Positions 2-40,086 of a stretch of DNA of 53,509 nt are shown in pieces. Location of the stretch: contig CAYMLW010000002.1 in the NCBI GenBank assembly GCA_964391035.1, forward strand, positions 1-53,509. The letters are read 5' to 3'. How positions within the stretch are numbered: position 1 is the first letter of the stretch; each line of letters opens with the position of its first letter. This stretch comes from an uncultured Gemmatimonadaceae bacterium (lineage in GTDB: Bacteria > Gemmatimonadota > Gemmatimonadetes > Longimicrobiales > RSA9). The position numbers were made by a program, and so were the translations under genes. The notes under the pieces were generated by a model that ran no database searches, was not told where the DNA came from, and saw nothing but the letters and a program-made list of their open reading frames with translations.

Positions 2-1198
2 GCCGGATTCGCCCTTACCGGCGTGATCGTGGCCGCGCTGATCCTGAAATACCCCTTCTTCGAGTTCGGGCCCCGCTATGCCGCGGCCACGGGCGAGAGC
101 CTGGTGGAGGGGTATGCGCGCGTCGGCCGGTGGGCGGTCTGGGTCTACTTCGTCATCACCCTGGCCACCGCCGTCATCGTGGACGGCGCGATCCTCCTCT
201 TCACCGCCTTCCTGCTGCTCTCCGTGGCAGGGCTGAACTGGCCGGTCTGGACGGCCGCCGGCGCCCTCTACGGGCTCTGTGCCGGCATTCTGTGGGTCGG
301 GCGGTACCGGCTCCTGGACCTGACCGTCAAGGCGATCCTGGTGCTGCTGGCGGTCTCGACGCTGGTGGCCGCGCTGGTCGCGCTGCCCCGGGCCGACCTC
401 GGGACCTTTGCCCTGATCCCCGAGACGCATCCGTCCGCGGCCGGGCCCGCCGTCCGGTTCGCGTTCCTCCTGGCGCTGATCGGCTGGATGCCTTCGGCGA
501 TCGACATCTCCGTGTGGAACTCGCTGTGGACGCTGGCGAAGGACGAGGCGGAGCGGGTCCAGACCAGCGTGCGCCACGCGCTGCTGGACTTCCGGATCGG
601 CTACATCGGCACCGGGGTCATGGCGTTCGCGTTCCTGACGCTGGGCGCCGCGGTCATGTACGGGAGCGGCGCGGGATTCAGCCCGGCCGGGACGGTCTTT
701 TCGCTTCAGCTCGTGGAGCTGTACGCGGAAACACTGGGAGCGTGGGCGCGGCCGTTCGTCCTGGCCGCGGTCCTGACCACGATGCTCTCGACGTCGCTCA
801 CGGTGGTGGACGGGTTCCCCCGGGGCCTGGCTCGCTCCGTCGAAGTGGTGCGCGGCGAGCGAGGCCCCCTCGGATCGAGAGCCGGAGCGGAGCGGGCCGG
901 TCCGGTTGCGCCGAGCGAGACCGGCGGGACCTACTGGGTGGCCCTCGTCCTCATCGGAATCGCGACGCCGCTGCTCCTGGCCTTCTTCGCGGGCTCGCTG
1001 ACGGGGATGGTCGATTTCGCCACGATCGTGACATTTCTGACGGCACCGCTCCTGGGCTACCTGAATCTCCGGGCGGTCACCCATGACGTGGTGGCCCCCG
1101 AGCACCGGCCCGGGGCGGCGCTCCGGGGCGTGGCCTGGGTCGCCATCGTCGCGGCCACCGTCCTCGGGTTCTTCTACCTCGCGTCGCTGGTCGGCTGA
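2..1198 (+). CDS. Nramp-like polytopic membrane transporter, 5' end cut by window edge
   Basis: The frame is open from base 2. There are many hydrophobic segments. The N-terminal 'KYPFFEFGPRYAAATGESLVEGY' resembles Nramp/MntH-related divalent-cation transporters. Family call is from memory only. Confidence 0.5.
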   Translation, partial: AGFALTGVIVAALILKYPFFEFGPRYAAATGESLVEGYARVGRWAVWVYFVITLATAVIVDGAILLFTAFLLLSVAGLNWPVWTAAGALYGLCAGILWVGRYRLLDLTVKAILVLLAVSTLVAALVALPRADLGTFALIPETHPSAAGPAVRFAFLLALIGWMPSAIDISVWNSLWTLAKDEAERVQTSVRHALLDFRIGYIGTGVMAFAFLTLGAAVMYGSGAGFSPAGTVFSLQLVELYAETLGAWARPFVLAAVLTTMLSTSLTVVDGFPRGLARSVEVVRGERGPLGSRAGAERAGPVAPSETGGTYWVALVLIGIATPLLLAFFAGSLTGMVDFATIVTFLTAPLLGYLNLRAVTHDVVAPEHRPGAALRGVAWVAIVAATVLGFFYLASLVG

Positions 1199-2733: not shown

Positions 2734-3414
2734 TCAACTCGCCTTGAAGATGTCGTCGGCCACGGCCTGCCGGTCCGCGGCGTCGGCGGTGGACGCGGCG
2801 GGATCGAACGCGCCGGCGGGGTGGCGGAATCCGTTGTCGCCCTTGCGGTCCTCGTCGTCGCGGAAGACGGACCTGGCGAAGATGCGGACCACGCGCCGGA
2901 GCTGGCTCTCGAGGTCGGCGATAATGGCCGAGGCGTGCTCGAGCTGCTGCGACGAGATGTCCTGGAACTGGAGGGCGACGACGAGGGCGTAGAGCTCCTC
3001 GCGGAGGGACTGGAAGTCGTCGTCGTCGCCGTCCTTCTCGATGCGGTCGACCAGCAGGAGGGCGCGGTCGACGCCGTCGAGCATGTTGGTGGCGGCGTGC
3101 TCGGTGGTGGACGAGACCTGCTGGAGCTTGGCCGTGGTGGTCTCGAGGTGGCTGAGCGCGGCTTCTTCGAGGAGGCCGCGGCTCTGGCGCACCTGGTAGA
3201 GGATCCGCTGGAGCTCGGCGTACATCCGGACGAAGGCGCGCTCGACGCTCCGGGTCTCGGAGCTGTGCTCGTTGAGCCGCTCGAGCATCCGAAGCAGCCC
3301 GGCGTTCAGGCGCTCCTCGTCCTCCGGCTCGCTGGCCAGCTCGGCCACGAGGTCATCCACGAGCCGGAGCGTGGCCGCGGAATCCTGGAGCTGTTCGTTC
3401 GTCAGACCGCCCAC
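2734..3414 (-). CDS. cheZ: CheZ-like CheY-P phosphatase
   Basis: Lies directly downstream of cheY. 'LQFQDISSQQLEH' matches the CheZ catalytic FQDLTGQ (D-x3-Q) motif. The acidic C-terminal 'QAVADDIFKAS' resembles the CheY-binding tail. GTG 3414 is preceded by GAGGAGGG. Confidence 0.6.
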   Translation of the reverse strand: MGGLTNEQLQDSAATLRLVDDLVAELASEPEDEERLNAGLLRMLERLNEHSSETRSVERAFVRMYAELQRILYQVRQSRGLLEEAALSHLETTTAKLQQVSSTTEHAATNMLDGVDRALLLVDRIEKDGDDDDFQSLREELYALVVALQFQDISSQQLEHASAIIADLESQLRRVVRIFARSVFRDDEDRKGDNGFRHPAGAFDPAASTADAADRQAVADDIFKAS

Positions 3415-4161: not shown

Positions 4162-4584
4162 TCAGGAGGTCACGTCCACGCTACGACCCGTCGAGGGGGT
4201 CGAGCCGGCCAGGTACCCCATACGGCCGGGACGCCGGTCGTCCATGTCCTTGACCGCTCTGCCGACCTCCCCTCCCAGGGCCCCGAGCTTCTGGAGCACC
4301 GCCCGGTCGGTGGCGCCGATGGCCTGGAGTCTGTCCCGGAGCGACGGGTCCACCGACTTCGCGTCGTGTTCGCCGGAGTCCGGGTCGAGGGCATCGATCT
4401 CGCGAGCGACCGCCTCCCGCTCGTCCGCCAGCTCGTGGAACCGCTCCAGGTCGGGGGCCGGTGCGTCGAGGGCCGCCAGCTGCGCGGCCAGGATCCGGCC
4501 ATACCGGTCCCATGCGTCCAGCTGGGCTGGAGGGGCGCCGTTCCGGCGGCGTCGCGAATCCCTGGAGCCGGCGGGCTCGATCAT
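4162..4584 (-). CDS. hypothetical helical protein in the fliT position
   Basis: The ATG at 4584 overlaps the fliS stop (ATGA). 140 aa, Ala/Leu/Asp/Arg-rich and predicted helical. No motif recognised. Confidence 0.5.
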   Translation of the reverse strand: MIEPAGSRDSRRRRNGAPPAQLDAWDRYGRILAAQLAALDAPAPDLERFHELADEREAVAREIDALDPDSGEHDAKSVDPSLRDRLQAIGATDRAVLQKLGALGGEVGRAVKDMDDRRPGRMGYLAGSTPSTGRSVDVTS

Positions 4585-4967
4585 GCGGTGCCTCCGCGTT
4601 CGACCTGGCTCGCCGCCTCGTCCCACGCGGTGTGCAGGCCGTCGATCATCTCGACGAGCGAGTGGAGTCGGGCCGTGTCGAGGGACCGGCCGACATCCAG
4701 GATCTCGCGGGCGAAGTATCCGTACAGACCCGCGAGGCGGGAGGCGAGCTCGTCGCCGGCATCGAAGTCGAGAGAGCCGAGCAGCTCGTAGACGATATCC
4801 GATGCCTTCTGGAGACTTTCCGACTTGGCCTCGAGATCCCCGGCCTCCATCTGCCTACCGGCCCGGCGAAGGTTCTTGAGCAGCCCCTGATAGAGGAGCG
4901 GGACGAGCCGCTCCCGGGGTGCAGTGAGGATCTGATTGTCGAGGTACGCCGAGTGCCCGTACATCAT
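4581..4967 (-). CDS. fliS: flagellin export chaperone FliS
   Basis: 'MMYGHSAYLDNQILTAPRERLVPLLYQGLL...' is a typical FliS N-terminus and four-helix layout. ATG 4967 is preceded by GGAG. An alternative start at 4991 cannot be excluded. Confidence 0.85.
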   Translation of the reverse strand: MMYGHSAYLDNQILTAPRERLVPLLYQGLLKNLRRAGRQMEAGDLEAKSESLQKASDIVYELLGSLDFDAGDELASRLAGLYGYFAREILDVGRSLDTARLHSLVEMIDGLHTAWDEAASQVERGGTA

Positions 4968-5008: not shown

Positions 5009-8000
5009 CTACTCGTCAGTACTTGAGGCCGATCCGGGGAGAGCCCCGATCTGGGCCATCAGCCAGGCGGACTGGTTCTGGGCAATGGCCATCGCCTTCT
5101 CCATCGCGGTGAACTTGCGGATCAGGGTGTCCCTGCGCCGCTCGAGTCGCGCCTCCATGTCATCGATCCGGTCGTTCAGCGTCTCCACGCGGTCGTCGAG
5201 CCCGTCGAGGAGCCACTGGATCGAGCCGTCGGCGCTGTCGAGCATGGGCTCGATGGCCTGCTCGACCAGGGAGGCGATGCCGCGACTGAACGTGACCGAA
5301 CCTGTCGAGAAGCTCTCGCCCACGGACACCATGAGCCCCTCGACATCGGTGTCCGCGGCGCCGGTCAGAACGCGACCCGAGCCGGTGGCGGCCATGCCGC
5401 CGATGGTCCCGACCGCATCCGTACCGGCGTACTCCGTGGCGGTCGTCCCCCCGAGCCCCAGCTCCGTCTCGGTCCCGGCATTGGCATACTCGATCCGGAA
5501 GCCGGCGGTCGTACCGTAGTCCTGGTGCGCGAGGGCGAGGGCGCCGCCGACGAGGGACGCGTCGATCCGGGCGGCGGCCCGACCTTCCTGAGAGACCTCC
5601 GTGGCCAGCTGAAGCGTACCGCCCCCGAGGTTGTCGGAGCTCATCTCGACTTCCAGCAAGCTCGAGCCGGTTTCGGCGGCGGTGATCGAGAACGTGCCGT
5701 CGCCGGCCAACTCCACGGTGGCGTCGGTGCCCAGGGTGTTCTGGAGGAGGTCGCGCAGCTCGCCCAGTGTCTGAGTGGTCACGTCGGCAAGGGCCAGCGA
5801 TTCGCTGAACGAGGTGCCGTCGGCACGTCGGCCAGCGATCGTGATGGTGTCGCCGTTCTGGACTCCGGCGCTCGATCCGCCCTGGTGGATCTGGCTCCAG
5901 GTGGTGTCCGTGGTGGCGGCGGTGCCGCCGGAATCCGAATCGAGGGCGGTGGTGGTCGCGATGGTGTGGGCCCGGGCCGTCGCCAGCTCGGTCTGGACGT
6001 TCTGGAGGACGGTCTCGGCCGTCTGATTCGCCTCGAGGGCCACGCTGTAGCTGCTGCCGGTGCCCAGATCCGTGATGACCAGGGTGTCGGATGCGAAGGA
6101 GGCGTCGAGCCCGTCGGCCAGATTGGTGCTTCCCGTTACCGAAGCCGTCGTGGCCGCCGACGTGACCGCCACGGTGTACGTGCCCGGGACGGTGTCATCC
6201 CCCGCCCCGAGGTAGCGGAGCCCGCTCCCGCTGGCGGCGCCGTGCACGCCGAACAGTCGCTCCACGGCGGTCGGGTCCGCGGCCAGCGCGTCGCGCAGGG
6301 TGGCCTCGTCGAAGGAGAAGGTGCCGTCCTGCTGGATCTCGACCCCGACATCCGTGAGGCGGGTCCACGAGCCGGCCACGCCGGTCCCGAGTGCCGTCCG
6401 CATGGCCGCGAGGATCCGGGTCCGGAAGCTCCGGAGGGTGCCGTCAGCAGCCAGAGGTTTGTTCGAGCCCTCGCCGCCGGTGAACTGGTCGGTCACGAAG
6501 CTGGCGACATCGTTGTAGCCGTCGACCAGGGCCTTCACCGCTGTCACCGCGGCGTCCACGTCCCGGCCGAGGGTGAGGGTCGCGGCCTCCGTCGTGGTGC
6601 CGGTCAGACCGAGGATGACGCCGGGGACGGGACCGGTGACCGTGTTGCTGGAATGGGTCGAGTAGACCCCGTCCACGCGGACCGCGGCGTCGGCACCGGC
6701 GACGATCTCCCGGGACCGGCCCACCACGGCCGTCTCGAAGGCGCCGAAATCGAGGGTGCCTCCGCCCTCGTTGTGGCTGACGATGGAGACGGCCAGGCGG
6801 CTGGCCCCTCCGGTGGCGTCGGTGACCACGAGCCGGCCGCTACCGTCGATGGAGGCGGTGGCCGCACCGTCGTAGCCGCTGGCGCCCTCGAGGGCGTCGA
6901 GGATGCCCTGGAGGATGTCGCCGCTCTGGACCGTGTAGTCGAGCTCGAACGTGGTGCCGTCGCGCCGGGTCCCGGCCAGGGTCAGGGAATCTCCGACCTG
7001 GACGCCGGCCGAACCCGCCGCGGTCGCGAGGGCGGTGAGCTCGGTGGCGGCGGTCGCGGTGGCGGCCAGGTCGTCGAGGAACGCGGTGGCCGAGCGGACG
7101 GACTGGGCCACGTCGCCGCGCCCGCCCTCGAGTACGCCGAGGGTCTCGAGGACGCCGTTCGCGTCGGAAAAGGCGGTGGTCCCGCTGATGTCGAGGCGAT
7201 AGACGGTCCCACCGTCCACCGTCTCGGCGACGACGACGGCGGAGATCTGTTTGCCCTGGGCGGTGGCGGCGTCGTTGAGGGCCTGGGCGATGTCCTCCAG
7301 GTCGCCGGTCAGGTCGATGGCCACGTCCTGGACCCCGCCGATGTCGACGGTCCCCGTGGTGGTCCCCGTGATGCCCAGCATCGTGGACACGGCCGTGCTG
7401 CTGCTGGCGAAGGCGTCGCTCGTGGCGCCGTCCGAGGTGGCGTGCTTGATTGCGGACGTGCCGTCGGTGAAGCCGAGGGCGGCGGCGATTCCGTCGGCCC
7501 CGTCGGCCAGCGCGATGCCGGCCGCGCCCGTGCTGCGGGCGGAAAGGACGAGCTGGTCGCCGACGTCTGTGCTGACCACGGTCGCCGAGACCCCGGTGGC
7601 GTCGGTGCCGGTGTCGGCGGCATTGATCGCATAGGCGAGGTCGGCCAGGGTGTGGGCCGCGTCGATGGCGATGCGGGCGCCGTTGATCCAGAACTCGCCG
7701 GTGAGGCCGAGGGCGTCGCCGCTCGAGGCGACGAAGTCGCTCCCGATCTTCTCCGCGGTGGCCACCTGGAGCACCTCGACGGCGTAGGATCCCGGGGAAG
7801 CGGAGGCGCCGGCGCTGGCGGTGAAACCGCTGCCGGTGACGGTGGTCGTGACGCCGTCGAAGGACGAGCCGTCGGCCAGGACGCTGGCGGAGTCCTGGAG
7901 CGTGGTGATCCTGGACTGGAAGGTGAGCCAGGCAGCGGACCGGGACTGGATCCCGGTGATCTTCTGCTGCACGCGCTGCGCGGGTCGTTCCTCGATCTGC

Positions 8001-8071
8001 ATGAGCTGGTCGACCAGGTCCCGCCACTGCACCCCGCTGGCCAGCCCGCTGAACGTCGCGATGGGTTCCAT
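5009..8071 (-). CDS. fliD: filament cap protein FliD (HAP2), unusually long (1020 aa)
   Basis: The N-terminus 'FSGLASGVQWRDLVDQLMQIEERP' and C-terminus 'RLERRRDTLIRKFTAMEKAMAIAQNQSAWL' are canonical FliD coiled-coil ends. The central 'VKALVDGYNDV' is the FliD_C core. Confidence 0.9.
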   Translation of the reverse strand: MEPIATFSGLASGVQWRDLVDQLMQIEERPAQRVQQKITGIQSRSAAWLTFQSRITTLQDSASVLADGSSFDGVTTTVTGSGFTASAGASASPGSYAVEVLQVATAEKIGSDFVASSGDALGLTGEFWINGARIAIDAAHTLADLAYAINAADTGTDATGVSATVVSTDVGDQLVLSARSTGAAGIALADGADGIAAALGFTDGTSAIKHATSDGATSDAFASSSTAVSTMLGITGTTTGTVDIGGVQDVAIDLTGDLEDIAQALNDAATAQGKQISAVVVAETVDGGTVYRLDISGTTAFSDANGVLETLGVLEGGRGDVAQSVRSATAFLDDLAATATAATELTALATAAGSAGVQVGDSLTLAGTRRDGTTFELDYTVQSGDILQGILDALEGASGYDGAATASIDGSGRLVVTDATGGASRLAVSIVSHNEGGGTLDFGAFETAVVGRSREIVAGADAAVRVDGVYSTHSSNTVTGPVPGVILGLTGTTTEAATLTLGRDVDAAVTAVKALVDGYNDVASFVTDQFTGGEGSNKPLAADGTLRSFRTRILAAMRTALGTGVAGSWTRLTDVGVEIQQDGTFSFDEATLRDALAADPTAVERLFGVHGAASGSGLRYLGAGDDTVPGTYTVAVTSAATTASVTGSTNLADGLDASFASDTLVITDLGTGSSYSVALEANQTAETVLQNVQTELATARAHTIATTTALDSDSGGTAATTDTTWSQIHQGGSSAGVQNGDTITIAGRRADGTSFSESLALADVTTQTLGELRDLLQNTLGTDATVELAGDGTFSITAAETGSSLLEVEMSSDNLGGGTLQLATEVSQEGRAAARIDASLVGGALALAHQDYGTTAGFRIEYANAGTETELGLGGTTATEYAGTDAVGTIGGMAATGSGRVLTGAADTDVEGLMVSVGESFSTGSVTFSRGIASLVEQAIEPMLDSADGSIQWLLDGLDDRVETLNDRIDDMEARLERRRDTLIRKFTAMEKAMAIAQNQSAWLMAQIGALPGSASSTDE

Positions 8072-14376: not shown

Positions 14377-14885
14377 CAGACTCTCTGGTTGATGAGGGCT
14401 GGTTCCCGTCCCCCCGCGCCCCACGTCCCGTTCTCGCCATACCCGGCGGAGGTCGGGGTCATGAGTCGCTGGACGTACTCGTTGCCGGTGTCGATGGCCC
14501 GGGTCAGGACGGCCCGGTTCAGCGACACCTCCGCCGAGACCGCCCGGGCGACCTGGCCGAGTTCGCGGCTGCGCGCGGTGAGCTCCGGCGTCATGTGGGT
14601 GCCGAGGGCCTCGCCGAGTTCGTCGACCGGAACGTCCCTGCGGTCGGTCAGAAGGTGGACCAGAGTCTGGCGGCGATTGCGTGCCTCGCCCAGGGTCTGG
14701 AGGACCCGATGGGCGGCATGGACGGACTCGTCGACCTTCGCCACGTCGTTCTCAGCGACGCCTTCACGCTGTTCCCTGAGGATCGCCTCGAGCCGGCCGA
14801 GGAGCCGGCTCTCGGTGTCGAGGGACTCGGCCAGCGACCGGATCGTCCGGCCGATGGTGGCCGTGTCCAGGTGCGCGGCGCTCAC
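14376..14885 (-). CDS. flgN: FlgN-family export chaperone (putative)
   Basis: Helical 169-aa protein located between flgJ and flgK. 'LLGRLEAILREQREGVAENDVAKVDE...LQTLGEARNRR' fits the FlgN pattern. Confidence 0.6.
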   Translation of the reverse strand: MSAAHLDTATIGRTIRSLAESLDTESRLLGRLEAILREQREGVAENDVAKVDESVHAAHRVLQTLGEARNRRQTLVHLLTDRRDVPVDELGEALGTHMTPELTARSRELGQVARAVSAEVSLNRAVLTRAIDTGNEYVQRLMTPTSAGYGENGTWGAGGREPALINQRV

Positions 14886-15169
14886 GATCCCGTCCCCCGG
14901 ATGAGCTGGCGGTAGAGGGCATCCGCCAGCCCGCCACCCCCACGCCGGGCCGTGAGTCCGGCAACGTGTTCATCGAGGAGCGCCGTAAAGACCTCCTCCG
15001 AACGACCCGCATCCAGCAGCCCGCCTTCGGGAACCGTGGCTCGCATGGCCTTGAACATCTCCTGTACGAATACGGCTTCGAAATCCCGGGTCGCGGCCCG
15101 GAGCCGGTCGTCGTCGATTCGCGAGCGGGCCGCGTCGAGGGCGCCGCCCACGCCGTCGCCAACCTTCAT
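14882..15169 (-). CDS. flgJ: FlgJ rod-binding domain protein (no hydrolase domain)
   Basis: 95 aa only. 'RAATRDFEAVFVQEMFKAMR' and 'FTALLDEHVA' are the Rod_binding motif. There is no glucosaminidase or peptidase part. Confidence 0.7.
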   Translation of the reverse strand: MKVGDGVGGALDAARSRIDDDRLRAATRDFEAVFVQEMFKAMRATVPEGGLLDAGRSEEVFTALLDEHVAGLTARRGGGGLADALYRQLIRGTGS

Positions 15170-19082: not shown

Positions 19083-19595
19083 TCACCGCGCGCCCATGCG
19101 GCGGAAGCTTCTTCCCCTACCGGCAACTCCATCCGGGCCAGAGACCCGGGCCAGGAGGGTGACGGCGTCCCGGGGGAGCGCCGTCTGGCGGGCGACGTCC
19201 AGGGCGAAGACGCCCTTGCGGGCCATGTCGCGGGCCTGGATGACGCGGCGGTCGGGGGTTCGCGTGCTGCGGCGAGGTTCCGGTGTCTGGGGGTCCCGGC
19301 GCAGGACGGCGGCGAGGCCGATGCCGACTCCGGCGGCGCAGATCACGATGATCAGCGATGCGGTCGGGGAGAGCGCGGCCCATGTGGCCACGTTCTCGAG
19401 GCCGGTGTCGATCCCGGCGACGGTCCGGAGGCGGGTGGCCTCCCACCCCAGGGCCCGAAGTCCGGCCTGGGCATCGTGGCTGAGGGCCTTGCCCGCCCGG
19501 TCCAGGGTCGAGGCGTCGGGGATCGGGAAGCGTGAGGCCACCAGTGCGACGGCCGCGCCGAGCCCAGCGGTGATGAACGTCTTGATTCTGTTCAT
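19083..19595 (-). CDS. hypothetical membrane protein translationally coupled to fliA
   Basis: The ATG at 19595 overlaps the fliA stop (ATGA). 170 aa with an N-terminal hydrophobic segment, a central TM 'LIIVICAAGVGIGLAAVL' and a basic C-terminal tail. No family recognised. Confidence 0.5.
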   Translation of the reverse strand: MNRIKTFITAGLGAAVALVASRFPIPDASTLDRAGKALSHDAQAGLRALGWEATRLRTVAGIDTGLENVATWAALSPTASLIIVICAAGVGIGLAAVLRRDPQTPEPRRSTRTPDRRVIQARDMARKGVFALDVARQTALPRDAVTLLARVSGPDGVAGRGRSFRRMGAR

Positions 19596-20356
19596 GCCGT
19601 GACCTCCCTGAGATGCCCGATTCGGGCTCGCAGTGTCTTGATGGTCTTGGACCGGATCTGCGAGATCCGGGACTCGGTGACACCGAGGATCTGGGCGATC
19701 TGGTGCATCTTGAGACCCTCGTGGTAGTAGAGCGCGAGGATGGTCCGCTCGCGTTCGGGCAGCTCGGCGATGGCTTCGGCGAGGATATCGACTTCCTCGT
19801 CGTGATTGAGGCGCTTTTCGGTTTCCTCCCCTACCGCACCGGGAATGACCTCGACGGTCGTGACCTGCCGCGTGCCGCCGGGGAGGGGTGCATCGAGGGC
19901 GACGTGCACCGCGTCGGCGGCATCGGATTCCCACCGACAGACCGTCTCGAGGTCCAGGTCGAGCTCCTCGGCGATCTCGACCCGGGTCGGCGCCCGTCCG
20001 AGCTGTGTGGCCAGCACCTCACGGGCCTGGGCCAGGGACCGCTGCTTGCGCCGGACCGAACGGGGCACGTGATCCCAGCGCCGGAGGTGATCGAGGATGG
20101 CGCCCCGGATCCGGGGGGTGGCGAAGGTACTGAATGCCAGGCCGCGGTCGGGGTCGAAGCCTTCGACGGCGTTGATCAGGCCCACAGTGCCGGCGCTGAC
20201 GAGGTCGTCGAGATCGAGCTTGCCGCGGATCCGCTTCCAGTGCTTTCGCGCCACGTACCGGACGAGGGGCAGGTGCTCCTCGACGAGTCGGTCCCGAGCC
20301 GTCGGGTCGCCGTCACTCTGATACGCTTGCCAGAGAGCTGTCTCAGTCATGATCAC
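19592..20356 (-). CDS. fliA: flagellar sigma factor sigma-28 (FliA/SigD)
   Basis: Region 2 'LVEEHLPLVRYVARK'. Region 4 HTH 'LKMHQIAQILGVTESRISQIRSK'. The start is GTG 20356 (GTGA overlap with flhG) or ATG 20350. Confidence 0.9.
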   Translation of the reverse strand: MIMTETALWQAYQSDGDPTARDRLVEEHLPLVRYVARKHWKRIRGKLDLDDLVSAGTVGLINAVEGFDPDRGLAFSTFATPRIRGAILDHLRRWDHVPRSVRRKQRSLAQAREVLATQLGRAPTRVEIAEELDLDLETVCRWESDAADAVHVALDAPLPGGTRQVTTVEVIPGAVGEETEKRLNHDEEVDILAEAIAELPERERTILALYYHEGLKMHQIAQILGVTESRISQIRSKTIKTLRARIGHLREVTA

Positions 20357-21129
20357 TTCATCAGGTGCAGAGTCGAAGGCCCGCCATTCCGGGCTGGCCG
20401 CAGCAGTCGGGCGGCGGCGGTGGCTGCGGCTTCCATCAAGGCCGGCTCGGCCTGGTCTAGGGCGGTCCAGAGCGGCTCGACCTCGAGGGTCGGTGCCGCC
20501 GGCAGGTGCCCGAGCCAGGAGACCGGTCGGTCGGTGAAGCGGCGCACGCCGGAGCGGAAGGCGTGCTGTACGAGGCCGGCCTGTTCCAGGTCGGCGGCGT
20601 TCGCGAGCCCGGCGACGGTGGTCTCCGGGCGGAGCCGCCAGGCGTACTTGGCCAGCGCGAAGCCGGCGGCCGGGGACACGCCGTCGGGCCCCATGACGGC
20701 GATCAGGCTGGCCCCGAAGTCGAGGAGTGCGCCGCCGATGGTGGCCGGCCGGGCGCCGGCATCGACGATCAGCGTGGTCCCCGGGTCGACGCGACCGGCG
20801 CGGCGCAGCGCGCTCCGTCGTTCGGCATCGGTGAGGCCCGGCAGGGTATCGATCAGGACCAGGTCCGGATCCAGTTCGGTTCGCCGGACGGGCTCGCCGT
20901 CCGGGTCGGGCCCGGCCAGGCCCAGCAGATGGGCGGGGCCACCGAATCCGCCCTGGGCGTCTATGAGGACCACGGGACCGAAGCGGCGCCCGGCGAAGGC
21001 CAGGAGGAGCGCTACGGAGGAGGTGCCCACGCCCCCCTTCCCGGCCGCTACCACGTGGCCGGTGCCCGGGACCCGTGGCGGCCTGGTTCGATCCACGAAG
21101 CGGCGGATCCCCTGCGCCTGAGTGCTCAT
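20353..21129 (-). CDS. flhG: FlhG/MinD-family flagellar number regulator with atypical Walker A
   Basis: Sits in the flhG position between flhF and fliA. The N-terminal 'TQAQGIRR' resembles the FlhF-activating DQAxxLR. The deviant Walker A reads GKGGVGTS (21019..21042; the codon is ACC, not Lys). Confidence 0.65.
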   Translation of the reverse strand: MSTQAQGIRRFVDRTRPPRVPGTGHVVAAGKGGVGTSSVALLLAFAGRRFGPVVLIDAQGGFGGPAHLLGLAGPDPDGEPVRRTELDPDLVLIDTLPGLTDAERRSALRRAGRVDPGTTLIVDAGARPATIGGALLDFGASLIAVMGPDGVSPAAGFALAKYAWRLRPETTVAGLANAADLEQAGLVQHAFRSGVRRFTDRPVSWLGHLPAAPTLEVEPLWTALDQAEPALMEAAATAAARLLRPARNGGPSTLHLMK

Positions 21130-26139: not shown

Positions 26140-27297
26140 TCAGCCGAAGCTCGCCACGACGCTGTGGACCACGAGGGCCCAGCCGTCGACCAGAACGAAG
26201 AGGAGCAGCTTGAACGGCAGCGAGACCATCACCGGGGGCAGCATGAACATCCCCAGGCTCATGAGGACGGCCGCCACCACCAGGTCGATGATCAGGAACG
26301 GCAGGAACAGCACGAACCCGATCTGGAACGCCGTGCGCAGCTCGCTGATGGCGAACGCGGAGACGAGGGTGATGAGCGGGACATCGTGGATGGTCTCCGG
26401 CGCCGGGCCGCCCCCCATGTCGATGAACGTGGCCAGGTCCGATTCCCGGACGTGGCTGGCCATGAACTCCCGGAACGGTCCCGCCGCGGTGCTCAGCATG
26501 GCGGCCTCGTCCATCTGCCCGTCCATCCACGGCTCCAGGGCGACCTCGTTGACCCGGCTCAGCGTCGGGGCCATGACGAAGGCCGTGAGCAGGAGGGCCA
26601 GCGCCGCGATGAGCTGGGCTGGAGGCGCCGTCTGGGTGCCCAGGGCCTGTCGCAGGAAATGGAGCACCACGAGCACGCGCGTGAAGCTCGTCATGAGCAG
26701 AAGCAGCGTGGGCAGCATGGTCAGGAGCCCGATGACCAGGACCGTCCCGACCGTGCCGGAGAGGCGGAGGCCGCCAGCATCCTCGTCGCCGACCTGGAGC
26801 TGGAGGTCGGGGAGCGCGTCACCGAACGCCGCGAGCGGGTCCTCCGTTTGCTGCTGCTGGACCGCGCCCACGGCAGCGCCCGGCGATGCGCCTGCCTGCG
26901 CCTGGGCCCCCGCCGCTGCCGGCGTCACCGCCTGGGCTCCGACGGCCAGCGATAGCGCCAGGACGGCGGCGCCCGCCGAGCGCAGGATCCTCTGCCACGA
27001 ACGGGGCCGTGGGCCGCGCGACGTGCGGTCGACGGCGACGGGCGGCGCCACGTCGTCGTCCAGCTCGCACACGGGATGCACGCCGCCCTCGCCCACCGAG
27101 ACCACCACGAGCCGGTCCGCGATCCGCACCGTGACCAGCCCTTGACGAGGACCGATCCCGAGGCGGCCGACGACCTCCATCGGCAGCTCGTTGGCGCCCA
27201 CGCCGTGGGTCCGCCCCTTCAGGAGCCGGACTCCCACGGCGATCACGCCGAGCACCAGACAGAGGGCGCCCATGACGGACGCGGCCAGGGAGATCAT
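26140..27297 (-). CDS. fliP: FliO-like domain fused in frame to FliP
   Basis: aa 1-85 have one TM plus 'MEVVGRLGIGPRQGLVTVRIADRLVVVSVGEGGV' (FliO-like). aa 101-122 'WQRILRSAGAAVLALSLAVGAQA' form a signal peptide. aa 180-385 carry FliP blocks ('MTSFTRVLVVLHFLRQALG', 'ISELRTAFQIGFVLFLPFLIIDLVV'). There is no stop codon between the two parts. Confidence 0.85.
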   Translation of the reverse strand: MISLAASVMGALCLVLGVIAVGVRLLKGRTHGVGANELPMEVVGRLGIGPRQGLVTVRIADRLVVVSVGEGGVHPVCELDDDVAPPVAVDRTSRGPRPRSWQRILRSAGAAVLALSLAVGAQAVTPAAAGAQAQAGASPGAAVGAVQQQQTEDPLAAFGDALPDLQLQVGDEDAGGLRLSGTVGTVLVIGLLTMLPTLLLLMTSFTRVLVVLHFLRQALGTQTAPPAQLIAALALLLTAFVMAPTLSRVNEVALEPWMDGQMDEAAMLSTAAGPFREFMASHVRESDLATFIDMGGGPAPETIHDVPLITLVSAFAISELRTAFQIGFVLFLPFLIIDLVVAAVLMSLGMFMLPPVMVSLPFKLLLFVLVDGWALVVHSVVASFG

Positions 27298-30890: not shown

Positions 30891-31544
30891 CTAGTTGGCG
30901 CTGACTTCCACGACAGCGCTAAGTGGTATCTCGATCGCTCCGATCATCAGAACCGGGCCCTCCATTGAGTACTTCACGCTGCTGACCGTGCCGCTCAGGT
31001 AGGTGGTCACGCCCACGGGCTCGCCGGCCGGGCTGGTGACCTCTACCTCGCAGCGGTACGTGCCGTCCTCCAGGTCGAGCGCGTCCAGCTCCAGCGTCTG
31101 GCGGCCGCCCTCGACGAAGCCGGCGTCGACCTCGGCCACGAGCTGGTTCCGGTCGTCATAGATCCGGACCGTGGCCGAGCCGCCGACCGCGCCGACCTCC
31201 ACCGGGATCCGGGCCGAGCCGGCGGCGACCTGGGTCCGATCGCCCACGGCCAACACCTGGCGACCGAGAACGCTGACGGCCGCGTCGCTGTTCATCGCCT
31301 GGGCGAGGGCGGCCGTGTACTGGGCCTGACCGATGAGGTTCTCGTTGACGTTGATCAGCTGCTCGACGCTCGAGAACTGGGCCAGCTGGGCCGCGAACTC
31401 CTGGCTCTCCATGGGGTTCATGGGGTCCTGGTTGCGCAGCTGTGCGACCAGGAGCTGGAGGAACTCCTCCTTCCCCAGGGCCCCTCCGGGCGGTGTCAAC
31501 ACCGACGAAGGAGGTGCACCCATCCCGCTGATTCCGTCCATCAT
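30891..31544 (-). CDS. flgD: hook capping protein FlgD
   Basis: 'LGKEEFLQLLVAQLRNQDPMNPMESQEFAAQLAQFSSVEQL' is the FlgD N-terminal signature. The ATG overlaps the fliK stop (ATGA). Confidence 0.9.
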   Translation of the reverse strand: MMDGISGMGAPPSSVLTPPGGALGKEEFLQLLVAQLRNQDPMNPMESQEFAAQLAQFSSVEQLINVNENLIGQAQYTAALAQAMNSDAAVSVLGRQVLAVGDRTQVAAGSARIPVEVGAVGGSATVRIYDDRNQLVAEVDAGFVEGGRQTLELDALDLEDGTYRCEVEVTSPAGEPVGVTTYLSGTVSSVKYSMEGPVLMIGAIEIPLSAVVEVSAN

Positions 31545-33793
31545 TCGTTCCCCTCCTGGTTGCGTTCCCTGCGCCGGTCCCGCCCCTCGTGGGCGTGGCG
31601 CTGGGTCCCGGTCTCGTCGTTCCGACCCGAGGAGCCGGGCTCCGTGGTCCGAACGGACTCGGCCACCTTCGGCGTGGCGATGTCCGCCACGATCCGCTCT
31701 CCCTGCCGTACCCGAAGTCCTTCCAGCTCCACGCCCTGGCGTCCGAGCGCCCGGGTCAGCTCCGGCAGCTCATGACCCATCTGGTGCGCCAGCCGGGAAG
31801 ACCGGGTATCCATCTCCGCACGGACGGCGTCGCCCTGGAGATCCACGCGGACCCGGGCTGCGTCCTGACCCTCCCCGACGCGGAGCGAGACACGCCGGAG
31901 CGGCTGTGCCTCGGAACGGGCGCGAACGCTGTCCACGGCCTCGACCCGGCTCGCCACGTCCGGACGCTCCATTGCGACGACGCCCTCCACCGGCCTGGCG
32001 GCCCGAAGCTGCCCGGACTCCACCGGGATTCGCGGCTCGGTGGGCCGGCCGGCCGTCGGCTCCATCGTCCGCGTCGTCAGGGGCTCGGGCCTCGTGGCCT
32101 CCCGGTCCGATGGGGCCGTGGACTCGGGGTCCGTGCTACGGGCGGCCTCGGCGGCGGCCCGTGGACCGGCCGCTCCGGGTGCGCGTCGGGTCACTTTGTA
32201 CTCGGCCGCAGCCCTGGCCGCTGCCCGTTGCCCCAGGCCGCGGGACTCCGTCCGAGTCGGGCCTCCGGCGGGACGGGCCCGGGCCTCGCCGCTACGGTCC
32301 GGCGCGCCGGGCGTGGTCTCCCCGGTACCGGGCCCCGTTCGCGTGGGGCGCGGCTGCCTGTCGCCGTCGACCGGGGCGGGAGCTCCGGGGATCTCCGACC
32401 GACCCCGTCGGAGCGCGGAGTCGCGACTGGCCGACGGATCGCGGCTCGGGGCCGCGTCCCGGTATGTGCCCGCGTCCCCGGTCCGGCTGCGAGCCCGGAC
32501 GTGGTCGACGATCTCCGCGGCCAACGAGGCCCGCTCCGCCGACCGGGGCTGTCGGGACTCGTGGGAGCCGTCCTCGGCCCGCTCGACCGCGGGCCGGGCG
32601 TCTGGCTGCAGCTGCGGCCCGGGCCGCAGGGGGCCCGATTGGGGTTGCGGCGCGGCAATCGGGGCCTTCGGGGTGCCGGATCCGGCCCGGGTTGGATCCG
32701 TCCCCACCCACCCGGCCGCCGGCGTCTCCGGGTCGGTACTCGAGCGCGCCCGCGCGGGAGCGGGTTCGAGCGAGGAAGGCGCTGGCGCGTCGTCCGGGCG
32801 ACGGGCCGTGTGCTCCATCACCGCGCGATACCGCAGGTCACCGCTCGTCGGCCCTGCCTCGACGGCCTCGCCTCCCAGGGCGACCTGGCCGTCCTGGTCG
32901 AGCGGCCGTGCCGCCTGGCCGCCCGGGTCCTGGCCAATGGCGGCAGCCCTCGGGTGGGCACGGCCGGCCACGGGCTCTTCCGCCGCTGCGACGATCGGCG
33001 GTCCGCCAGAGCCCTGGGCTGCTTCGGGACGCGGGGTCGAACGGGCTTCATGGGGGACGTCGGGCGCGCCCGCCACCGTGGACTTCGGGGCCGCCGATGT
33101 CGTCCCGGGGACGGCGATGCGCGCGACCCGGGCGACCGGCGCCAGACGCGCGACACCCGCCACCGTGGCGACTGTGGCGACTGTGGCGACTCTGGCGACC
33201 CGGGCCACCCCGGGCGCCGGGTCCTCCACCCGCGCCGGCAGGCTGCCGTCATGACCGGCGGCGTGCATGCGCGTGTCCCCGTGCCCCGTTGTGGCGGCCC
33301 CCTCGAGGCCCGGGAGCTCGACGTGGCCGGGATCCCGGAGCCCGAGGGTGACCAACCCTTCCTCGCGAGCGACCCGCTGGAGCGTGCGATACGCCTCGAG
33401 GTCGCCGTACCCGCCGTTCACCATGAGGTCGGCGGCGCGGCCGACCTCGTGGGCCGAATCCCGGGTCCAGGTCACGACGGGGCCGGGTCGCGTGCGGCCC
33501 TGTGTGAACAGGTGGTCCTGGCGGGCCGCGCTGCGCCAGCCCTCCACGACCTGGACATCGTGGCCGAATTCACCCCGCATGCGGCCGATCACCCGCTCGA
33601 GGCGCGCTCTGAGCTCCGGCGCCAGCCGGGCCATCTCCGGGTCCCGGACCGGTCTGTCCAGGGGCGGCCCCGGGGCTCGCCGCTCCGCTGACGACATCAC
33701 GCTCAGGAGCGCCGCGTCGAACCCGGCCGCGGCTTCCCTGCCCGTGGGCCGGATGTCCGGTCCGCCGAACAGGCTCAGGATCGCCTGGATCAC
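31541..33793 (-). CDS. fliK: FliK-like hook-length control protein with N-terminal M15/LAS peptidase-like domain
   Basis: Sits in the fliK position. The C-terminal region 'LRVGEGQDAARVRVDLQGDAVRAEMDTRSSRLAHQM...LTRALGRQGVEL' is Flg_hook-like. aa 60-160 'EGWRSAARQDHLFTQGRTRPGPVVTWTRDSAHEVGRAADL...DPGHVE' is a VanY/M15 zinc-peptidase signature. A long P/A/R/E-rich linker joins them. Confidence 0.75.
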   Translation of the reverse strand: MIQAILSLFGGPDIRPTGREAAAGFDAALLSVMSSAERRAPGPPLDRPVRDPEMARLAPELRARLERVIGRMRGEFGHDVQVVEGWRSAARQDHLFTQGRTRPGPVVTWTRDSAHEVGRAADLMVNGGYGDLEAYRTLQRVAREEGLVTLGLRDPGHVELPGLEGAATTGHGDTRMHAAGHDGSLPARVEDPAPGVARVARVATVATVATVAGVARLAPVARVARIAVPGTTSAAPKSTVAGAPDVPHEARSTPRPEAAQGSGGPPIVAAAEEPVAGRAHPRAAAIGQDPGGQAARPLDQDGQVALGGEAVEAGPTSGDLRYRAVMEHTARRPDDAPAPSSLEPAPARARSSTDPETPAAGWVGTDPTRAGSGTPKAPIAAPQPQSGPLRPGPQLQPDARPAVERAEDGSHESRQPRSAERASLAAEIVDHVRARSRTGDAGTYRDAAPSRDPSASRDSALRRGRSEIPGAPAPVDGDRQPRPTRTGPGTGETTPGAPDRSGEARARPAGGPTRTESRGLGQRAAARAAAEYKVTRRAPGAAGPRAAAEAARSTDPESTAPSDREATRPEPLTTRTMEPTAGRPTEPRIPVESGQLRAARPVEGVVAMERPDVASRVEAVDSVRARSEAQPLRRVSLRVGEGQDAARVRVDLQGDAVRAEMDTRSSRLAHQMGHELPELTRALGRQGVELEGLRVRQGERIVADIATPKVAESVRTTEPGSSGRNDETGTQRHAHEGRDRRRERNQEGNE
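33116..33208 (-). repeat. in-frame 9-bp tandem repeat array inside fliK
   Basis: Plus strand has GTGGCGACT x3 perfect (33165..33191) flanked by degenerate 9-mers. It encodes VARVARVATVATVATVAGVARLAPVARVARI. Confidence 0.7.
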
Positions 33794-34503
33794 GGGGCCC
33801 CTCCTCCCAGGACGGACCGGCTGAGGATGGCGGCCCGGTCCGGGTCCATCCGGCTGAGGATCGAGGCCGCCTGGCGCGGCTGGATGTGGCTGAGGATCGA
33901 CGTGATCTCGGCGTCGCTCATGTGGCCGAGCACCGCCGCGGCGTCGCGCGGCTGCATGGCCGCAAAGATCCGGGCGAGCTGTTTCGCGCCATCCACGGCC
34001 CGGGCCCTGAGCTGCTCGTCCCCGGCTCCGTTGTCCGTACCGTCGGCGATCGCCCCGCCGGTGGCCGGCCCGGATCCGGCAGAGCCGGCGCCGATCCCCG
34101 GCCGGTCCGTGGCCGGGGTCCGTGGGGCCCCCTCGTCCGGCGCGGCCGTCGGATCCGGCCGTGCGGTTGCCCCGGCGAGCGTGTCCTGCCCGGCGGGAGA
34201 GTCCGGCATTGCCAGGGCGTCCGGGGACGCGAGGGAGCCAGCCGGAGGAGCGGTCGCCGGATCGGGGGCGTCCCGGGGCGTATCCGGATCGAGATCGGGC
34301 GGATCGGTCCGTGGGACCTCGTCCGTCTCATGCGACGGGGCGTCGGGGGAATCCGCCGCGGGGTCCGTCCCCGGGGCCTCGGCCGCGTGGGCGACGTCGG
34401 TGGCCAGGACATCGACGGCCGCCTCCCAGGTGGTGACCGTCCATGCGGTCCCGACCACGATCCCGAGCAGCAGTGCCGCGAGCGGCAGGATCAGCGCTTT
34501 CAT
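33790..34503 (-). CDS. MotE/YlxF-like protein with MgtE-N-type domain
   Basis: N-terminal TM, a Pro/Asp-rich spacer and the C-terminal 'FAAMQPRDAAAVLGHMSDAEITSILSHIQPRQAASILSRMDPDRAA'. It sits between fliJ and fliK, as ylxF does in Bacillus. Confidence 0.6.
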   Translation of the reverse strand: MKALILPLAALLLGIVVGTAWTVTTWEAAVDVLATDVAHAAEAPGTDPAADSPDAPSHETDEVPRTDPPDLDPDTPRDAPDPATAPPAGSLASPDALAMPDSPAGQDTLAGATARPDPTAAPDEGAPRTPATDRPGIGAGSAGSGPATGGAIADGTDNGAGDEQLRARAVDGAKQLARIFAAMQPRDAAAVLGHMSDAEITSILSHIQPRQAASILSRMDPDRAAILSRSVLGGGAP

Positions 34504-39759: not shown

Positions 39760-40086
39760 TCAGATCCTCAGGTCGAGCCGGTGGCCCCGGGCGGGAGGCG
39801 TGGACGGCCCCTCCGCGCGTGGCCCGTACGTCACGCCGCCCATGGCCGCGAAGCGGGCGAAGTGGGCCCGCTCTTCGGTGGTGAGCAGGCTCCACAGCTC
39901 TGCGTCGACCCCTTCCGGGACCGACTCCAGCTCGCCCACCGCAGCCGGGACCTCCGGCACCACGGGCCGCGCCGTTTCCGTCTGGCCGGAGCGGGCCGGG
40001 CTCGTGCTGTCACTGTCGTCGGGACGGCGACCCGGCTCGCCTCGGAAGACGTCCGGGATCACCGGACCGATTCCTCGTACGCTCAT
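39760..40086 (-). CDS. hypothetical protein inserted between flgC and fliE
   Basis: 108 codons with strong GC3 bias. GAGGAG lies 8 nt before the ATG, and the stop lies 1 nt before the fliE ATG. The N-half is Pro-rich and the C-half reads 'ELWSLLTTEERAHFARFAAMGGVTYGP'. No family recognised. Confidence 0.55.
   Translation of the reverse strand: MSVRGIGPVIPDVFRGEPGRRPDDSDSTSPARSGQTETARPVVPEVPAAVGELESVPEGVDAELWSLLTTEERAHFARFAAMGGVTYGPRAEGPSTPPARGHRLDLRI

Follow-up and report, generated by a model that had tools for sequence, protein, structure and literature searches.

The 53,509-nucleotide stretch analyzed here (the window; contig CAYMLW010000002.1 of assembly GCA_964391035.1, from an uncultured Gemmatimonadaceae bacterium) is essentially a single flagellar and chemotaxis supercluster, and in its fliK position lies an uninterrupted 750-codon open reading frame (ORF) with a GTG start, here called fliK-M15. 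The start codon shares the letters GTGA with the stop of the preceding motE-like gene, the stop codon shares ATGA with the start of flgD, and a GGAGG Shine-Dalgarno sequence was found a few bases upstream of the fliK-M15 start and again ahead of that of flgD. The gene was found exactly as described in an original prediction, made from the letters of the window, which had read it as a FliK-like hook-length protein with an N-terminal peptidoglycan peptidase domain of the M15/LAS type. The gene order fliI-fliJ-motE-like-fliK-flgD-flgE was also kept in related loci, and because the ORF is flanked by the motE-like gene and fliJ on one side and by flgD on the other, it was assigned to the fliK slot. 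The analyses below show that the encoded protein is a FliK orthologue with a LAS/M15 domain inserted into its N-terminal "ruler" half. It is not a FlgJ, and Pfam found no Rod-binding domain in the 750-amino-acid (aa) protein.

AlphaFold2 (AF2), run with an alignment of 47 orthologues, predicted exactly two confident domains in the protein, at about aa 55 to 162 and aa 611 to 706. The first was modeled with a predicted local distance difference test (pLDDT) score of 85 to 98 and carries the motifs R87-S-x3-Q92, Q98-G-R100, S113-x-H115-x6-D122, and D154-x-x-H157. This is the stretch that had been picked out as M15/LAS-like by its motifs, and its matches to LysB4, Ply500, and PHROG families went well beyond chance. 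A phmmer search of PDB sequences with the window domain alone returned LysB4 (E 4e-6) and Ply500 (E 7e-6), and a profile of the relatives gave E 1.4e-11 for Ply500 and E 7e-11 for LysB4. PHROG endolysin families were matched down to E 1e-16, with the match to the endolysin family phrog_2649 spanning the whole domain, D154-P-G-H157 included. The structural comparison bore out the assignment as well, since every Foldseek match of the AF2 model has the LAS fold, a central antiparallel sheet with helices packed against it: Ply500 came first (E 6.8e-7), then LysB4 and LysECD7 (TM 0.61 on the target), and further matches were VanXY, LdcB, ChiX, the L-Ala-D-Glu peptidases of T5 and RB49, and Hedgehog N-domains. 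The M15 domain is thus closest to the phage L-Ala-D-Glu endolysin/CwlK type.

With regard to the active site, the S-x-H-x6-D motif of Ply500 and LysB4 lines up with H115 and D122, and we take these to be the equivalents of Ply500 H80 and D87 after a 12-residue tag offset in the deposited chain. D154-P-G-H157 has the form of the D/E-x-x-H motif, which provides a general base and a third ligand for zinc, with the equivalence of H157 drawn from motif and fold, not from a residue-level superposition. R87, Q92, and S113 make up a conserved substrate-side motif that is common to active endolysins. The searches and structural comparisons that the original prediction called for came out in its favor. 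The Pfam models for VanY, Peptidase_M15, and Flg_hook stayed below their gathering scores on the window protein. On the M15 side, VanY reached 13 to 16 bits (cutoff 25), Peptidase_M15_3 13.7 (23.2), and Peptidase_M15_2 13.6 (27), and NCBIfam returned just vanXY, at 10.7 bits against a cutoff of 250; some orthologues scored better on the Pfam M15 models (best E 2.6e-5). The domain is a divergent subfamily of LAS/M15 whose membership rests on PDB, PHROG, and fold evidence, and this divergence, together with the sub-threshold Pfam matches, accounts for its inconsistent handling by annotation pipelines.

The M15 domain is also the most conserved segment of the protein, with a mean pairwise identity of 0.66, compared to 0.40 for the C-terminal T3S4 (Flg_hook) domain and 0.14 to 0.30 for the leader, the C-terminal tail, the linker (estimated from one pair), and the spacer that comes right after the M15 domain. 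Nine residues (E84, R87, R91, Q92, S113, H115, D122, D154, and H157) were invariant in 47/47 orthologues, and the same columns were invariant in an alignment of 75 sequences. This pattern argues for, and is not proof of, a functioning catalytic site in the domain. In most orthologues, the M15 domain is internal, starting at about aa 100 to 380 after a longer leader, so its description as N-terminal holds for the window protein and its lineage and not for most of the family.

The second confident domain corresponds to the substrate-specificity switch of FliK. Pfam placed Flg_hook (PF02120) at aa 648 to 699 of the window protein (E 2e-4 with the whole protein, 2e-5 with the piece alone), where a likeness to this domain had been noted before. 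Flg_hook was matched at E<=0.01 in 65/75 ORFs (74 relatives and the window's own; best E 4.8e-10), and many database orthologues carry a precomputed PF02120. AF2 modeled the domain with pLDDT 88 to 93 and an α-β-β-β-α-β-β topology, for which Foldseek returned the C-terminal domain of Salmonella FliK as solved by nuclear magnetic resonance (2rrl; probability 0.98, E 0.011) and the switch domain of PscP (5cuk; probability 0.95). A sequence profile of the C-terminal region gave nothing significant against PDB chains, and the FliK assignment therefore rests on the Pfam matches of the orthologues together with the fold match.

Ahead of the M15 domain, the leader contains F25-D-A-A-L29 (nucleotides 33707-33721), a motif of the Fxxxφ gate-recognition type. 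An F-[AS]-x-L-L-type motif precedes the M15 domain in 38/47 orthologues, with FxALLA as the alignment consensus, and FLQLL is found at a similar position in the FlgD of the window. Fxxxφ is the FlhB-docking, gate-recognition motif of rod/hook-class export substrates (PMC4183434), and from this likeness F25-D-A-A-L29 is a candidate export motif. The two confident domains are separated by a linker of ~450 residues with a block mean pLDDT of about 34 to 56 over most of aa 165 to 610; both its length and its sequence vary highly among orthologues. One short helix inside the linker (aa 420-435, approximately 32485..32535 on the minus strand) was modeled with moderate confidence (pLDDT ~71). A run of (V-A-x)5-11, located 35 to 55 aa past the M15 domain, was found in nearly all orthologues, with a pairwise identity of 0.53, and in the window it is partly encoded by a 9-nucleotide DNA tandem repeat (33165-33199). 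AF2 gave no confident structure for the repeat; it formally fits the hexapeptide-repeat pattern, but a β-helix was rejected because the run is too short and is unstructured in the model. Neither a cell-wall-binding module nor a signal peptide accompanies the M15 domain. The coordinates of all features are collected in Table 1.

Table 1. Features of fliK-M15 and of the genes discussed with it (positions in the window)
Feature	Position	Strand	Description
fliK-M15	31541..33793	-	750-aa ORF in the fliK slot; stop codon 31541-31543
N-terminal leader	33629..33793	-	aa 1-55; presumed flagellar type III export/docking signal
LAS/M15 zinc-peptidase domain	33308..33628	-	aa 56-162; PDB, PHROG, and Foldseek matches, AF2
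Predicted zinc ligands	H115 33449-33451; D122 33428-33430; H157 33323-33325	-	from motif and fold
Predicted catalytic base D154	33332-33334	-	from the D/E-x-x-H motif
Linker	31964..33307	-	aa 163-610, including the V-A-x repeat; Ala/Pro/Arg/Gly-rich, mostly disordered; presumed ruler segment
(V-A-x)11 triplet repeat	33110..33208	-	aa 196-228; VARVARVATVATVATVAGVARLAPVARVARIAV
FliK C-terminal T3S4 (substrate-specificity switch) domain	31676..31963	-	aa 611-706
C-terminal tail	31544..31675	-	aa 707-750; basic, disordered, AF2 pLDDT <50; Arg-rich consensus in orthologues
motE/FlbB-like gene	33790..34503	-	upstream of fliK-M15, translationally coupled; Pfam MgtE_N E 2e-7, FliG_M E 1e-5
flgD (hook cap)	30891..31544	-	downstream of fliK-M15, translationally coupled; Pfam FlgD E 5e-22, NCBIfam FlgD E 1e-33
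flgJ	14882..15169	-	95 aa, single-domain; Pfam Rod-binding E 1.6e-14, no other domain; between flgN and flgI

We also considered whether the ORF is an artefact, in which a frameshift within the GC-rich linker, introduced by sequencing or assembly, had fused a small M15 peptidase gene to a following fliK. A first search for homologues, queried with aa 1 to 183, returned just proteins of 147 to 300 aa and so suggested a separate small M15 gene; the linker has a GC content of 77% and is open in several frames; and on one related contig (L001) the Flg_hook domain follows the M15 domain in another frame. However, most of the short matches lay on contigs of about 1 to 3 kb or on two contigs, L001 and L002, which have the M15 gene in the same slot as the window and in which fliF, fliI, and flgE are fragmented too, and the reading as a separate gene was dismissed; the frame change in L001 fits an indel-rich assembly. 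Relatives in which the gene appears split were confined to contigs with many frameshifted flagellar genes. A scan of species-representative genomes found 211 loci encoding a relative, of which the best 80 were fetched and 74 had a complete ORF. All 74, from independent assemblies, hold a single frame, open for 1.0 to 1.5 kb from the M15 domain and ending 30 to 150 nucleotides before flgD, with the motE-like gene upstream and flgD downstream. The window ORF likewise keeps to one frame throughout its GC3 profile. A full-length search returned >313 database proteins of 420 to 760 aa with the same layout, among them WP_171225886.1 (715 aa), an orthologue encoded in the complete genome of a cultured species, Gemmatimonas groenlandica. 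We therefore regard the artefact as effectively refuted.

An exhaustive profile search (E<=1e-30) gave 464 clusters at 50% identity, and the best 150 were nearly all 400 to 1000 aa long with the domain internal. Almost all of the best 80 loci bore labels from Gemmatimonadota (Gemmatimonadaceae, Gemmatimonadales, and Longimicrobiales among them), which places the window in this phylum. The fusion is genuine and older than the Gemmatimonadales/Longimicrobiales split, and it is conserved across the phylum Gemmatimonadota. Two contigs with other labels, CALQGY020000005.1 ("Candidatus Kuenenia stuttgartiensis") and JBBSGA010000530.1 ("Chloroflexales"), have a motE-fliK(M15)-flgD arrangement of the Gemmatimonadota type at 62 to 66% GC and are probably mis-binned in public metagenome-assembled genomes. 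Given the 66% GC of the "Kuenenia" contig and its unchanged synteny, a wider spread beyond Gemmatimonadota, which these labels would suggest, was set aside.

The orthologues appear in the databases as "M15 family metallopeptidase", "CwlK" (the JGI automatic naming of some), "YcbK (DUF882)", or "hypothetical", and no source name joining M15 and FliK was seen among the database orthologues inspected. Proteins named in this way make Gemmatimonadota genomes seem to be without fliK, and their annotation needs correction. The original prediction knew of no description of this architecture, and likewise no published description of a FliK-M15 fusion was found in the literature, with most subscription journals outside the coverage. 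A review of the partner domains of wall hydrolases lists for M15 just amidase, PG-binding, and SH3, with no flagellar type, and never mentions FliK.

As for other wall-opening activities, the ~45 genes scanned in the 53-kb cluster yielded no SLT, GH73, or M23 domain and no wall-lytic domain of another kind, and the same scan found no second Flg_hook ORF. The cluster includes flgH and flgI, which points to a diderm envelope. FlgJ had been described as reduced to its rod-binding domain, and it does consist of that domain alone, whereas the word reduced does not apply: single-domain FlgJ is usual outside the beta- and gamma-proteobacteria, and a separate wall-cutting enzyme is then recruited, e.g., SltF or BB0259 (PMC8517470).

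We propose, with a probability of about 0.55, that FliK-M15 is exported early, cuts stem peptides of the wall at the rod tip, and then acts as ruler and switch. The N-terminal Fxxxφ motif would dock the protein on FlhB, and the flagellar type III apparatus would export it unfolded, as an early substrate of the rod/hook class. As long as the growing rod has not passed the outer membrane, the protein would come out at the rod tip into the periplasm, where the M15 domain would fold, bind zinc, and cleave peptidoglycan stem peptides locally; the mesh would thereby be widened into a passage for the rod and, later, for the P and L rings and the hook. The M15 domain would in this way provide the wall-opening activity that the rod-binding-only FlgJ of the lineage is without, and the C-terminal T3S4 domain would keep the normal switch function of FliK. 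Cleavage is predicted, probably, at L-Ala-D-Glu, as the closest relatives of the M15 domain are L-Ala-D-Glu endolysins. From the domain content and from comparison with characterized systems, we infer that the protein is exported, that it acts in the periplasm, which bond it cuts, and that it takes part in wall penetration.

A difficulty raised by the original prediction was one of timing, namely that FliK would be exported only after the rod had crossed the wall. FliK is, however, secreted continuously through rod and hook assembly (PMC13344023). A FliK-β-lactamase fusion was moreover exported by the flagellar type III secretion system (T3SS) to the periplasm, where it gave ampicillin resistance, and to some extent this took place in the wild type before outer-membrane penetration (PMC13344023). 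Because FliK is exported during both rod and hook assembly and the fusion is active in the periplasm, the objection of late export falls away.

Several points weigh against the proposed role. Once the outer membrane has been crossed, most FliK would exit the cell instead of entering the periplasm. The scan for lytic enzymes covered 53 kb, and a separate flagellar lytic transglycosylase may sit elsewhere in the genome. On the window protein, both domain assignments are sub-threshold in Pfam, with E 0.009 to 0.08 for VanY/Peptidase_M15 and 21.5 to 24.7 bits for Flg_hook against a gathering cutoff of 29.8. Hedgehog N-domains, which retain the LAS zinc site, occur among the Foldseek matches, and zinc ligands as such do not prove peptidase activity. 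Dedicated hydrolysis also helps the rod through the wall in Salmonella, yet neither Salmonella nor B. subtilis strictly needs it for this step (PMC13584718). The M15 domain may then be just an efficiency factor, or serve another purpose, and a mutant phenotype may be quantitative and not all-or-none.

The alternatives concern what the domain does. It could be a structural module of the ruler, non-catalytic or incidentally catalytic, that is stabilized by zinc and refolds after leaving the channel, working as a ratchet or stopper, or as an anchor binding peptidoglycan or the cap, and so tuning the transit speed of FliK and hence the timing of the switch. The behavior of FliK does depend on the exit speed of its N-terminal part (PMC13344023), and the M15 domain lies in the N-terminal ruler half at a variable distance from the N-terminus; zinc-intact LAS folds are also known from proteins that are not mainly peptidases, of which the Hedgehog N-domains are an example. 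We nevertheless hold this unlikely, as the invariance in 47/47 sequences extends over the zinc ligands, the general-base position D154, and the R87/Q92/S113 motif of active endolysins, and a pairwise identity of 66%, far above that of the rest of the protein, is more enzyme-like.

A role in remodeling the peptidoglycan at the basal body for other ends would share the delivery route of the proposed early wall cutter, and sequence analysis cannot separate the two. Such ends could be the P-ring site, the anchoring of the stator (MotB) or of a collar, or passage of the hook as in spirochaetes. In Borrelia, a wall-lytic enzyme is needed for the hook, and not the rod, to cross the wall (PMC8517470). 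The gene upstream of fliK-M15 weakly resembles the spirochaete collar protein FlbB, and the cluster encodes a MotB with an OmpA-type wall-binding domain. We consider such a role quite unlikely to be the main one.

It is improbable that the domain is a bacteriolytic cargo, with FliK secreted after the hook has crossed the outer membrane and attacking the walls of neighbors for competition or nutrients, and with the flagellar T3SS serving as a general secretion route. FliK is indeed secreted (PMC13344023), and the M15 domain has its closest relatives among phage endolysins, some of which lyse Gram-positive cells from without (Ply500, LysB4). The M15 domain has no cell-wall-binding module beside it, however, and its strict phylum-wide linkage to the T3S4 domain and the fliK slot favors a role in assembly. 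FliK is, moreover, infrequently secreted and of low copy number.

With similarly little credence, we entertained that the ruler is also a drill and that the two jobs are mechanistically coupled, such that the transit speed of FliK is set as the M15 domain refolds at the rod tip or engages peptidoglycan. Passage through the wall would then be a checkpoint, and the molecule reading it would be the one that afterwards measures the hook and triggers the type III specificity switch. FliK-M15 would in that case be a natural T3SS ruler bearing an enzyme, possibly made from a captured phage endolysin domain, and the conserved V-A-x repeat could be part of the sensing or positioning device.

The window protein shares with the FliK/T3S4 family, which includes YscP/PscP, the slot upstream of flgD, the C-terminal T3S4/Flg_hook domain, a long disordered ruler, and the N-terminal Fxxxφ-type motif; it departs from that family in having a folded zinc-peptidase domain of ~105 residues and the (V-A-x)n repeat in its N-terminal half. 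We know of no characterized FliK protein with an enzymatic domain, and the 405-aa FliK of Salmonella is much shorter than the 750-aa window protein. The dual-domain FlgJ of beta- and gamma-proteobacteria, in which a rod cap is joined to a GH73 glucosaminidase, likewise has a wall-degrading domain on an early T3SS substrate and delivers it at the nascent rod tip (PMC8517470, PMC13584718). The difference is that the carrier here is the ruler FliK and that the proposed chemistry is that of a stem-peptide metallopeptidase, in contrast to the glycan-strand glycosidase of FlgJ. Nambu et al. (2006) reportedly described FlgJ proteins of some delta-proteobacteria that carry a peptidase M23 domain, which would be the nearest precedent for a peptidase.

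SltF of Rhodobacter, PleA of Caulobacter, and BB0259 of Borrelia are separate, Sec-exported enzymes of the SLT family that bind FlgJ. They answer the same problem of wall passage in lineages with a rod-binding-only FlgJ (PMC8517470), whereas the activity predicted for the window protein would be built into a T3SS substrate, with an enzyme domain from another superfamily. Phage endolysins and CwlK (Ply500, LysB4, the T5 endolysin, LysECD7, and ChiX) are the best matches of the M15 domain and share the series R-S-x3-Q ... QGRT-x-PG-x-VT ... S-x-H-x6-D ... D-x-x-H; in the window protein, unlike in these, the domain is not a stand-alone enzyme but is embedded in a flagellar export substrate, without a cell-wall-binding domain or signal peptide of its own. 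The engineered FliK-β-lactamase of the Hughes laboratory comes close in arrangement, as an enzyme on FliK that reaches the periplasm through the T3SS while the rod is being assembled and works there (PMC13344023), and it is, by analogy, a laboratory proof of principle for the delivery route proposed here. It differs in being artificial and in carrying an enzyme that is not directed at the wall, while FliK-M15 is natural and phylum-wide.

What is already known, then, is a wall-degrading domain on an early flagellar T3SS substrate, in the form of dual-domain FlgJ; what differs here is the carrier, the ruler FliK, and the chemistry, that of an endolysin-type LAS metallopeptidase, its activity being predicted. 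The crossing of the wall in lineages with a hydrolase-less FlgJ is only partly understood, and the known solutions are glycan-cutting enzymes that are either fused to FlgJ or recruited by it. FliK-M15 would be a third solution, fixed phylum-wide, in which an endolysin-like metallopeptidase, predicted to cut stem peptides, is placed within the hook-length ruler. If the activity is confirmed, it would widen the repertoire of flagellar wall-opening chemistries and carriers, provide a natural counterpart of the engineered FliK-enzyme fusions, and raise the testable question of how the cutting is restricted to a place and a time. It would also point to the recruitment of a phage lysin module into flagellar assembly.

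Around fliK-M15, the supercluster contains motAB, csrA, flgK, flgN, flgJ, flgI, flgH, flgA, flgG, and flgF; fliA, flhF, flhA, flhB, fliR, fliQ, fliOP, fliN, fliM, and fliL; flgE, flgD, and fliK-M15, then fliJ to fliE and flgC; and flagellin genes, fliD, fliS, flgM, fliW, and che genes. The GC content of the window is 67 to 77%. Further upstream, beyond the motE-like gene, lie fliJ, fliI, fliH, fliG, and fliF. The motE-like gene gave a weak NCBIfam match to the spirochaete flagellar collar protein FlbB (collar_FlbB, E 1.4e-3), and its product has an N-terminal hydrophobic segment, then a long Pro/Asp/Ala-rich region, and an MgtE_N/FliG-like C-terminus, which is typical of MotE/FlbB-like proteins.

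Some further genes in the window stood out. Four sizeable ORFs in or beside the cluster had no Pfam match at E<=0.001: 23..1198 (+), 4162..4626 (-), 19083..19934 (-), and 20353..21129 (-), the last of which occupies the expected place of flhG, between flhF and fliA. An ORF of ~108 aa between fliE and flgC (39760..40086, -) had no Pfam match either, and L001 has a 113-aa unannotated gene at the same fliE-flgC position (2843..3184); this ORF is a candidate for a flagellar gene that is conserved in, and specific to, the lineage. The filament cap protein FliD (5009..8071, -) is 1020 aa long, roughly double the usual length of FliD, with FliD_N at aa 12 to 106 and FliD_C from aa 459. Finally, the 385-aa product of the ORF at 26140..27297 (-) has a FliO domain (aa 34 to 95) followed by a FliP domain (aa 189 to 379), which suggests a FliO-FliP fusion protein.

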